A stretch of 46,723 nt of DNA from Candidatus Woesearchaeota archaeon (GTDB taxonomy: Archaea; Nanobdellota; Nanobdellia; SCGC-AAA011-G17; JAGVZF01): positions 1 through 46,723 of the forward strand of contig JAGVZD010000002.1 of the NCBI GenBank assembly GCA_018302805.1, given 5' to 3'. Under the pieces are notes generated by a model. It had not been told where the DNA came from. It worked only from the letters and a program-made list of their open reading frames with translations, and did not search any database. Made by a program: the position numbers and the translations under genes. Positions 1,718-46,723 of this stretch are shown here, piece after piece. The stretch's first letter is position 1. Every line of letters starts with the position of its first letter.

Positions 1718-1804
1718 GAGCCTGTAGCGCAGCTTGGATAGCGCGGCAGCCTCCTAATTTTGGAAGACAGCTGTAGGTCGTGGGTTCGAATCCCACCAGG
1801 CTCG
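1718..1804 (+). tRNA. tRNA-Arg(CCT) with 12-nt canonical intron (1757-1768)
   Basis: Acceptor GAGCCTG/CAGGCTC, anticodon stem GCAGC/GCTGT, T arm GTGGG-TTCGAAT-CCCAC. Confidence 0.9.
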
Positions 1805-29226: not shown

Positions 29227-29291
29227 AAAATTCAAATCAAGATTGCATTTATAAAAGTTTTTAAATTTAAAAAATATCCAAGTATTGATAT

Positions 29292-29380
29292 AGTCCCGTA
29301 GTCTAGCGGTCAAGAGGCTTGGCCTGATAAGATAGCGGACTCTGGATCCGTTGACCCAGGTTCGAATCCTGGCGGGACTA
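29292..29380 (+). tRNA. tRNA-Gln(CTG) with 16-nt D-arm intron (29315-29330)
   Basis: Acceptor AGTCCCG/CGGGACT, anticodon arm GCGGA-CTCTGGA-TCCGT; BHB: helix GTCA/TGAT, bulges AGA and AAG, inner helix GGC/GCC. Confidence 0.92.
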
Positions 29381-29383
29381 TTT

Positions 29384-33874: not shown

Positions 33875-33986
33875 GCTCCGTTAGTCTAGCCCGGTCAAGG
33901 ATTCGGCCCTCTCGAGCAAACTTTTCTTAAAAGTTTAATCAAAATGGAGAAAGGCCGAGACCCGAGTTCAAATCTCGGACGGAGCA
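33875..33986 (+). tRNA. tRNA-Glu(CTC) with 37-nt canonical intron (33915-33951)
   Basis: Acceptor GCTCCGT/ACGGAGC, anticodon stem CGGCC/GGCCG, BHB helix CTCT/GGAG, T arm CCGAG-TTCAAAT-CTCGG. Confidence 0.92.
33918..33943 (+). repeat. palindromic intron element, copy A
   Basis: AAACTTTT-CTT-AAAAGTTT-AATCAAA inside the tRNA-Glu intron. Confidence 0.9.
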
Positions 33987-41623: not shown

Positions 41624-41707
41624 GCGGCTTTAGTTCACCGGTAGAATCCGAGCTTCCCAATTCTTAGGAATTAGCTTGAGAAGTGGGTTCGATTCCCACA
41701 AGCCGCA
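41624..41707 (+). tRNA. tRNA-Gly(CCC) with 13-nt canonical intron (41660-41672)
   Basis: Acceptor GCGGCTT/AAGCCGC, anticodon stem CGAGC/GCTTG, BHB helix TTCC/GGAA. Confidence 0.92.
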
Positions 41708-46514: not shown

Positions 46515-46637
46515 TGGGCCCAACCGGATTTGAACCGGCGACCTATATCGATTTAATATTTCGATGGCTGTCCAATCTGGCTATCAGTATCACCCTCAAA
46601 TGAGTCGAATGCTCCAGCCAGGCTAAGCTATGGGCCC
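46515..46637 (-). tRNA. tRNA-Ile(GAT) with three introns (46589-46605, 46566-46581, 46545-46559)
   Basis: Acceptor GGGCCCA/TGGGCCC; three BHB-like motifs; removing 17+16+15 nt leaves a 75-nt cloverleaf with anticodon arm TTCGA-CTGATAA-TCGAA. Confidence 0.85.
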
Positions 46638-46723
46638 ATAATCTTAGTTGCAGCAACCTTAACAATAGAACATTCGTATTATTTATAAAAGTTGCTACAG
46701 AAGGTTTTTAAGTGTAGTCTTGA

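Follow-up and report, generated by a model that had tools for sequence, protein, structure and literature searches.

A predicted three-intron tRNA-Ile(GAT) gene with a CAT triplet inside its first intron in a Woesearchaeota archaeon

We examined a 123-nt locus on the minus strand of a Woesearchaeota contig (positions 46515-46637) and conclude that it is very probably a real tRNA-Ile(GAU) gene, whose product would read ATT and ATC codons, with three BHB introns at 30/31, 37/38 and 43/44 that are predicted to be spliced as the initial annotation had proposed. The case rests on the structure of the predicted product, an exhaustive search of BHB-compatible splice states and comparison with orthologous genes in related genomes.

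Gene structure and predicted product

The window, meaning the whole stretch of DNA that was analysed (46,723 nucleotides), is the entire contig C54 of an assembly (G000) that comprises 1.03 Mb in 74 contigs, has 30% G+C and is 89.5% complete. DNA runs containing the stretch come from groundwater and soil metagenomes, and none of the listed runs is catalogued as RNA. The Rfam model RF00005 matches the gene end to end (model positions 1-71) with 43.7 bits, the gathering score being 29 bits, and the alignment puts 37 extra nt into the anticodon loop and 16 into the variable region. The gene has an acceptor stem of 7 bp, a D stem of 4 bp with a 10-nt loop and a T stem of 5 bp with the loop TTCAAAT; the discriminator base, at 46515, is A, and CCA is not encoded.

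Three separate introns of 17, 16 and 15 nt divide the gene into exons of 32, 7, 6 and 30 nt, all on the minus strand (gene index k is 46638 minus the window position). Exon 1 (46606-46637) holds tRNA positions 1-30, namely the 5' strand of the acceptor stem, the D arm and the first four bases of the anticodon stem, and is followed by intron 1 at 30/31 (46589-46605, gene index 33-49), which carries a full hBHBh' motif. Exon 2 (46582-46588) is a micro-exon that covers positions 31-37 and includes the anticodon GAT at 46583-46585. Intron 2, at the canonical site 37/38 (46566-46581, gene index 57-72), has a relaxed BHB and separates exon 2 from a second micro-exon, exon 3 (46560-46565), which supplies positions 38-43, the 3' strand of the anticodon stem. 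Lastly, intron 3 at 43/44 (46545-46559, gene index 79-93) is of the hBH type without an inner helix, and exon 4 (46515-46544) holds positions 44-73, comprising a 5-nt variable loop, the T arm, the 3' strand of the acceptor stem and the discriminator.

The 75 nt that remain without the three introns make up a canonical cloverleaf, with GAT as its anticodon, that passes the strict cloverleaf test described below. Its predicted anticodon loop, CTGATAA, is 7 nt long, is closed by a 5-bp stem and has U33 and a purine at 37, and ARAGORN reports tRNA-Ile(gat) when run on the 75-nt spliced product. Discriminator A73 and A37/A38 fit what we take to be identity elements of tRNA-Ile. The three introns, their positions and the 75-nt product had all been put forward in the initial annotation, and each element was recovered where it had been placed, in a strict cloverleaf with which the orthologs agree. 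Upstream of the gene, an A/T-rich, TATA-like element on the same strand (46680-46693), read from the sequence, is a possible archaeal promoter; a similar element, CTTTATAAA, lies upstream of the orthologous genes in many relatives.

BHB motifs and splice-state search

Archaeal BHB motifs usually have two 3-nt bulges, each cut after its second base, with a 4-bp helix between them. Introns 1 and 3 both have a 4/4 central helix and 3-nt bulges at the exact exon boundaries. For intron 1, the central helix CATT/GGTG includes two G-U pairs and is flanked by the bulges CGA and ATA; the CTC/GAG hairpin on the inner side has 3 bp and the outer helix has 2 bp. Helix, bulges and hairpin are just as they had been described beforehand. 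For intron 3, the central helix is ATCG/CGAT and the outer helix consists of 3 bp formed with the last bases of intron 2, falling to 0 once intron 2 is gone; because an inner helix is absent, this motif is classed as relaxed. The motif of intron 2 is relaxed because of an A.A mismatch that reduces its central helix to 3/4, and it has an inner helix of 3 bp and an outer helix that grows from 1 bp in the primary transcript to 5 bp, the anticodon stem, after removal of intron 1. In the right context, at least one flanking helix was found beside the bulges of each of the three introns.

Under a lenient definition, the 123-nt gene contains 48 candidate BHB motifs. As such a definition is unselective on its own, the weight of the argument rests on the cloverleaf test and on the comparisons. 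We followed every BHB-compatible removal up to four deep (170 splice states) and required of each product full acceptor, D, anticodon and T stems together with T33 and a purine at 37. ARAGORN accepted 19 of 50 spliced candidates of final length, with assorted anticodons; it is too permissive for spliced candidates, so this strict cloverleaf test was used instead. Two of the 170 states passed, the 75-nt product and a 90-nt form that retains intron 3, and both read GAT. When letters were shuffled within each intron, none of 300 shuffles reached the 75-nt product and three reached any strict cloverleaf.

Comparison with related genomes

The ortholog in a genome of the same genus (G001) is 88% identical over 141 nt, has the same neighbouring gene downstream and carries introns at the same three sites (30/31, 37/38 and 43/44). 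The two genes differ by about 12 substitutions and indels, all of which can be placed in introns (6 in the first, 1 in the second and about 5-6 in the third) and none in the 75 exon positions (12 of 51 intron columns versus 0 of 75 exon columns; Fisher test, p about 8e-6). Exons 1 and 4 are identical, exon 2 (ACTGATA) does not vary even though the introns on either side of it diverge, and for the two species the same mature 75-nt tRNA is predicted. An independent metagenome run yielded a 125-nt contig with a G001-like allele, in which 6 substitutions and 6 indel letters all fall at intron coordinates. Contigs from four DNA runs contained the G001-like allele and joints belonging to tRNA genes of other organisms; an intronless GAT arm and CAT arm joints among these contigs were traced to such other tRNA genes and rejected as spliced forms of the present one.

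To place the gene in a broader context, we searched 41 genomes and read Ile(GAT) genes in 16 of them. Eleven were solved by the splice pipeline, which was given 14 and returned no solution for those of G003, G004 and G028; the remaining genes of the 16 were read by eye and with motif tables. The halves of the window gene match Ile(GAT) genes of 14 further related genomes besides G001, with exon 1 up to 100% identical over 31-33 nt to the genes of G028 and G005; the 5' part is also 93% identical over 28 nt to the Ile(TAT) gene of G000 itself. The number of introns varies from none (G009, G015, G034 and G038) to one (G017, G035 and G004, where it lies in the D loop), two (G028, G029 and G032) and three (G000, G001, G003, G005 and G031), and G006, whose 5' end was not resolved, has at least three. 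Triple-intron tRNAs had initially been called rare, which is overstated for this lineage, given that 5 of the 16 Ile(GAT) genes read have three introns. With zero, one, two or three introns in the same gene, these 16 genomes form a compact series for the study of intron gain and loss.

The orthologs with fewer introns give an external check on the predicted product. In the intronless genes of G034, G015, G009 and G038, and in the single-intron genes of G017 and G035, the anticodon arm and variable loop are as predicted here, and those of G034 are exactly the ones predicted for the window gene. The boundaries of the non-canonical introns were checked by register. The five genomes tabulated for the intron at 30/31 (G000, G001, G003, G028 and G029) all have a 4/4 central helix there, and this helix covaries, its third and fourth pairs switching among T.G, T-A and C-G. 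The control register 27/28 gave 0-1 of 4 pairs in these five genomes and reached 4/4 only in G005 and G031, where the first intron sits at 27/28. For the intron at 43/44, the central helix is 4/4 in all six genes that have it, and shifting the boundaries by 1-2 nt left only 0-3 of the 4 central pairs.

These data bear on a reading in which introns 1 and 2 alone are removed and the 15-nt insert at 43/44 stays in a 90-nt tRNA as a long variable region. Such a product passes the cloverleaf test if a 20-nt variable region is allowed, and if intron 2 were removed first, intron 3 would lose the only flanking helix it has. Against it, tRNA-Ile is a class I tRNA, and the same 5-nt variable loop is present in all 10 orthologs tabulated. 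Nothing occupies 43/44 in G028, G006, G017, G035 or the four intronless orthologs. In the six genes with the insert it is bounded, in exact register, by two 3-nt bulges around the 4/4 helix, and between G000 and G001 the insert diverges and its flanks do not. We consider retention of the insert very unlikely.

We also weighed whether the locus is a decaying pseudogene, with the working Ile(GAU) gene lying in the unassembled 10% of the genome. At 89.5% completeness, a second Ile(GAT) gene, or for that matter a second EndA subunit, could be unassembled, and the relaxed BHB motifs of introns 2 and 3 would suit decay. The confinement of the differences between the two species to introns (none in exons versus about 12 in introns) argues against this, as do the maintenance of the BHB helices through compensating changes and the conservation of the neighbouring gene and the upstream A/T-rich element. 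In addition, Ile(GAT) genes are just as interrupted in relatives from other genera, and the ortholog searches turned up no intact second copy in those genomes. Decay is highly improbable on this evidence.

Separately, the 37/38 introns of the Ile(GAT) genes of G006 (L007, 70 nt) and G032 (L015, 62 nt), genomes of different families, have in common a hairpin-like element of about 22 nt, perhaps a mobile one.

The CAT triplet in intron 1

The initial annotation had described a decoy CAT anticodon in the first intron. The triplet is indeed in intron 1, at 46600-46602, where it merely lies in the loop of the inner hairpin. A tRNA with anticodon CAT (Met or Ile2) would arise if one large intron followed the naive loop CT-CAT-T, and a straight read of the gene, in G000 and likewise in G001, does give the 5' strand of the anticodon stem followed by CT-CAT. 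That read puts T at position 37, as had been pointed out at the outset, and among the 170 BHB-compatible states, none that reads CAT satisfies the strict cloverleaf requirements. The CAT segment varies between G000 and G001, unlike the ACTGATA segment, and the intronless orthologs read GAT. Moreover, an elongator-type CAT tRNA is already encoded at 2902-2990 of the window, and Ile2(CAT) is not expected in a genome with an Ile(TAT) gene and no TiaS match. We give the CAT reading almost no credence.

It is extremely improbable that the hairpin has a function of its own in imitating a Met/Ile2 anticodon arm, for instance as a decoy aimed at a synthetase or modification enzyme. In G000 and G001 alike, CT-CAT comes after a 5-bp stem strand, but this arrangement is missing from the equivalent 30/31 introns of G003, G028, G029 and G006; a 2-nt insertion gives the two species of the genus hairpin loops of unequal length, and the role of CTC/GAG as inner helix of the splicing motif accounts fully for that stem. 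Since CAT is absent from the introns of those four relatives, nothing suggests a function, and the triplet is incidental and a trap for annotation only.

Splicing order and folding

We scored each motif in all six possible splicing orders in silico. The motif of intron 1 was unaffected by context in any order, and the fully supported orders were 1-3-2 and 3-1-2. Intron 2 comes last because its outer helix requires intron 1 to be gone and because intron 3 requires the tail of intron 2. From this model we infer that splicing is likely ordered, with introns 1 and 3 removed in either order, followed by the canonical intron 2. The initial annotation had held that splicing must be ordered; the scoring supports this in silico and adds that intron 3 would need intron 2 present and intron 2 would need intron 1 removed.

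The proposed pathway would begin with transcription of the tRNA-Ile(GAU) gene as a single precursor, in which EndA would cut both 3-nt bulges of each BHB and RtcB would ligate the exons. Intron 1 would bring a complete motif of its own. The motif of intron 3 would draw its central helix from the 3' strand of the anticodon stem and its outer helix from the tail of intron 2, and the canonical intron 2 would have to await excision of intron 1 before the anticodon stem could form as its outer helix. Exon 3 (46560-46565) alternates between two partners, pairing with exon 1 in the anticodon stem or with intron 3 in the BHB central helix, and as both conformations share the same six bases they are mutually exclusive.

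Thermodynamic folding gave a mixed picture. The central helix of intron 3 had a probability of 0.87-0.98 in the precursor, and the anticodon stem reached about 0.5 only once introns 1 and 3 were out. The central helix of intron 1 had a probability of only 0.02 in the naked precursor, and that of intron 2 reached 0.00-0.04 even with the other two introns out. The same model fails to recover the D stem of the mature tRNA (0.04-0.09), so we gave its evidence against the BHBs of introns 1 and 2 little weight. The minimum-energy fold of the precursor contains a 7-bp helix between gene index 17-23 and 55-61 (window 46615-46621 and 46577-46583), in which D-loop bases pair with the last bases of the anticodon micro-exon and the first of intron 2; it is in competition with intron 1's BHB and may be due to chance.

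The dependence between motifs raises the possibility that the introns are interlocked. The inner helix of the 43/44 intron is absent from the genus of G000 and G001 and has 4-6 bp in the homologues of four other genomes. On the basis of two closely related genomes and a 3-bp helix, we hypothesize that the 43/44 intron borrows the tail of the canonical intron, its own inner helix having decayed. The wider proposal is that the 43/44 intron leans on the canonical intron's tail, that the canonical intron becomes a substrate after the cut at 30/31, and that the order may be hard-wired in this way and carried out by a plain alpha4-like EndA without an extra loop; we regard this model as tentative and, taken as a whole, rather doubtful. 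If true, it would mean that one intron can help the enzyme to recognize another and that relaxed motifs are within reach of a 'strict' type of endonuclease.

Splicing enzymes

The genome encodes both enzymes that the proposed pathway would use. An EndA gene on contig C49 (G000:C49:5020-5622, minus strand) matches PF01974 with 107.6 bits and specifies 201 aa with N and C domains; a search of G000 for a paralogue found none even at E up to 10. Residues 32-201 align to the alpha4 enzyme of M. jannaschii with a single one-residue gap, and, compared with the catalytic subunit of N. equitans, the protein is six residues shorter ahead of the region of the catalytic histidine. The nearest EndA genes are from organisms labelled Candidatus Woesearchaeota or Nanoarchaeota archaeon, many of them from groundwater. 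RtcB is represented by a full-length match to PF01139 (537 bits) with no stops. The EndA gene and an RNase Z-like metallo-beta-lactamase gene (L021, 2161-3057) stand back to back, so that two tRNA-processing nucleases adjoin.

The alpha4 enzyme is described as strict for the canonical BHB in the sections of PMC4033280 and PMC4090602 available to us. The relaxed motifs of introns 2 and 3 set against an alpha4-like EndA count against the proposed splicing. The inserted loop L3 of Kaneta et al. 2018, as far as it is characterized in the available sections of PMC5829648, was not located in the G000 EndA. With micro-exons of 7 and 6 nt and interdependent motifs, the gene offers a substrate with which to ask what a loop-less EndA of the alpha4 type cuts.

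tRNA complement and performance of annotation tools

A scan for T arms and acceptor stems together with Rfam gave 32 tRNA candidates in G000, to which a tRNA-Phe(GAA) was later added. The splice pipeline solved 24 of the 32 candidate genes, and among these only the window gene reads GAT. A check for another tRNA-Ile(GAT), suggested in the initial annotation, found none: a search of G000 with an intronless ortholog returned only the two halves of the window gene and other isoacceptors. A regular expression that matched bare GAT anticodon arms anywhere in the genome proved uninformative, with 63 matches in A/T-rich sequence and none of them in surroundings that resemble a tRNA. The gene at 46515-46637 is apparently the sole source in G000 of a tRNA for ATT and ATC. 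These two codons make up 62.7 per 1000 codons, or about 6%, in stop-free runs of at least 200 codons, a frequency at which a GAU reader is indispensable.

The initial annotation had also suggested a check for a full set of CAT tRNAs. The elongator-type gene at 2902-2990 is the only CAT tRNA found in G000; for the initiator, a short anticodon-arm motif matched only one site, on contig C66, that is not tRNA-like, leaving the set incomplete as detected. G000 carries a tRNA-Ile(TAT) gene (C17:5711-5844, minus strand) with two introns of 31 and 29 nt, and a search of this 89.5% complete genome for the TiaS family gave no match. Taken together, these two results indicate that AUA (38.4 per 1000 codons in G000) is probably read by a UAU anticodon rather than by an agmatidine-modified CAU, and no third CAT tRNA is expected.

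The warning that automated scanners could miss or misassign the gene proved true for ARAGORN, which made no call at 46515-46637 by default and with the intron option reported tRNA-Ala(agc) with a 33-nt intron. Automated tRNA inventories of DPANN genomes of this kind will look incomplete when they are not, because the tool misses or mislabels such a gene. ARAGORN also reported a 'tRNA-Ile(gat)' at 29291-29381 (plus strand), which we rejected as a second GAT gene: it is a tRNA-Gln(CTG) in which GAT lies inside a 16-nt D-arm intron, with a length of 73 nt after removal. With it, the window has two false anticodons that lie inside introns.

All six tRNA genes of the window (1718-1804, 2902-2990, 29292-29380, 33875-33986, 41624-41707 and 46515-46637) are 84-123 nt long, exceed the length of a mature tRNA and have at least one insertion each. 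The pipeline resolved five of them, as Met CAT, Gln CTG, Glu CTC, Gly CCC and Ile GAT; the sixth, at 1718-1804, had no solution and was called Arg cct with an intron by ARAGORN. Elsewhere in G000, tRNA-like genes of 198 nt (C4:12531-12728, minus strand) and 126 nt (C69:4577-4702, minus strand) were likewise left without a pipeline solution, and C13:5300-5400 (minus strand) and C27:5871-5967 (plus strand) hold, respectively, a tRNA-Phe(GAA) with an insert in the T loop and a tRNA-Pro(GGG) with a T-arm intron.

Relation to known systems

Multiple-intron tRNA genes are best compared with those of the Thermoproteales (Sugahara et al. 2007/2008, as cited in the available sections of PMC4033280). 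According to these sections, the maximum there is likewise three BHB introns per gene, canonical and non-canonical positions are mixed, relaxed hBH and HBh' motifs occur, and splicing is by EndA and a ligase. In contrast, the host here is a mesophile-type, Woesearchaeota-like DPANN archaeon with 30% G+C and a genome of about 1 Mb rather than a crenarchaeon, and a single alpha4-like EndA was found instead of an (alpha-beta)2 enzyme with the Crenarchaea-specific loop. Among DPANN archaea, the same sections list multiple-intron tRNAs for ARMAN-1/2 and N. equitans. The portions of Kaneta et al. 2018 (PMC5829648) available to us predict tRNAs for one Woesearchaeota and one Pacearchaeota genome, associate the alpha4-type EndA of DPANN with heavy disruption of tRNA genes, link this disruption to the inserted loop L3 and describe tRNA sets that software cannot complete; no account of the present gene, or of Ile(GAU), was found in those portions.

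A second point of comparison is the order of splicing. In the text available from PMC3728597, nested or ordered archaeal BHB introns are cited, in which the motif of the last intron cannot form until the others have been processed, and in the three-intron tRNA-Ile(UAU) of the red alga Cyanidioschyzon merolae removal ends with the 37/38 intron, the order of the two before it being free. The order predicted here in silico is the same, with 37/38 last; what differs is that the 43/44 intron would also need the canonical intron to be present, as its outer helix comes from that intron's tail. As nested introns and an order ending at 37/38 have already been published, the principle of ordered splicing is not new. 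In the literature examined, to the extent that its text was available, we found no description of a non-canonical intron that uses the tail of a canonical intron for its flanking helix. Judged against the available parts of PMC4033280, PMC3728597 and PMC5829648, multi-intron and nested tRNA introns are already in print; nothing here alters what is known of how such introns work, and the present gene is a well-supported example of a structure known in kind.
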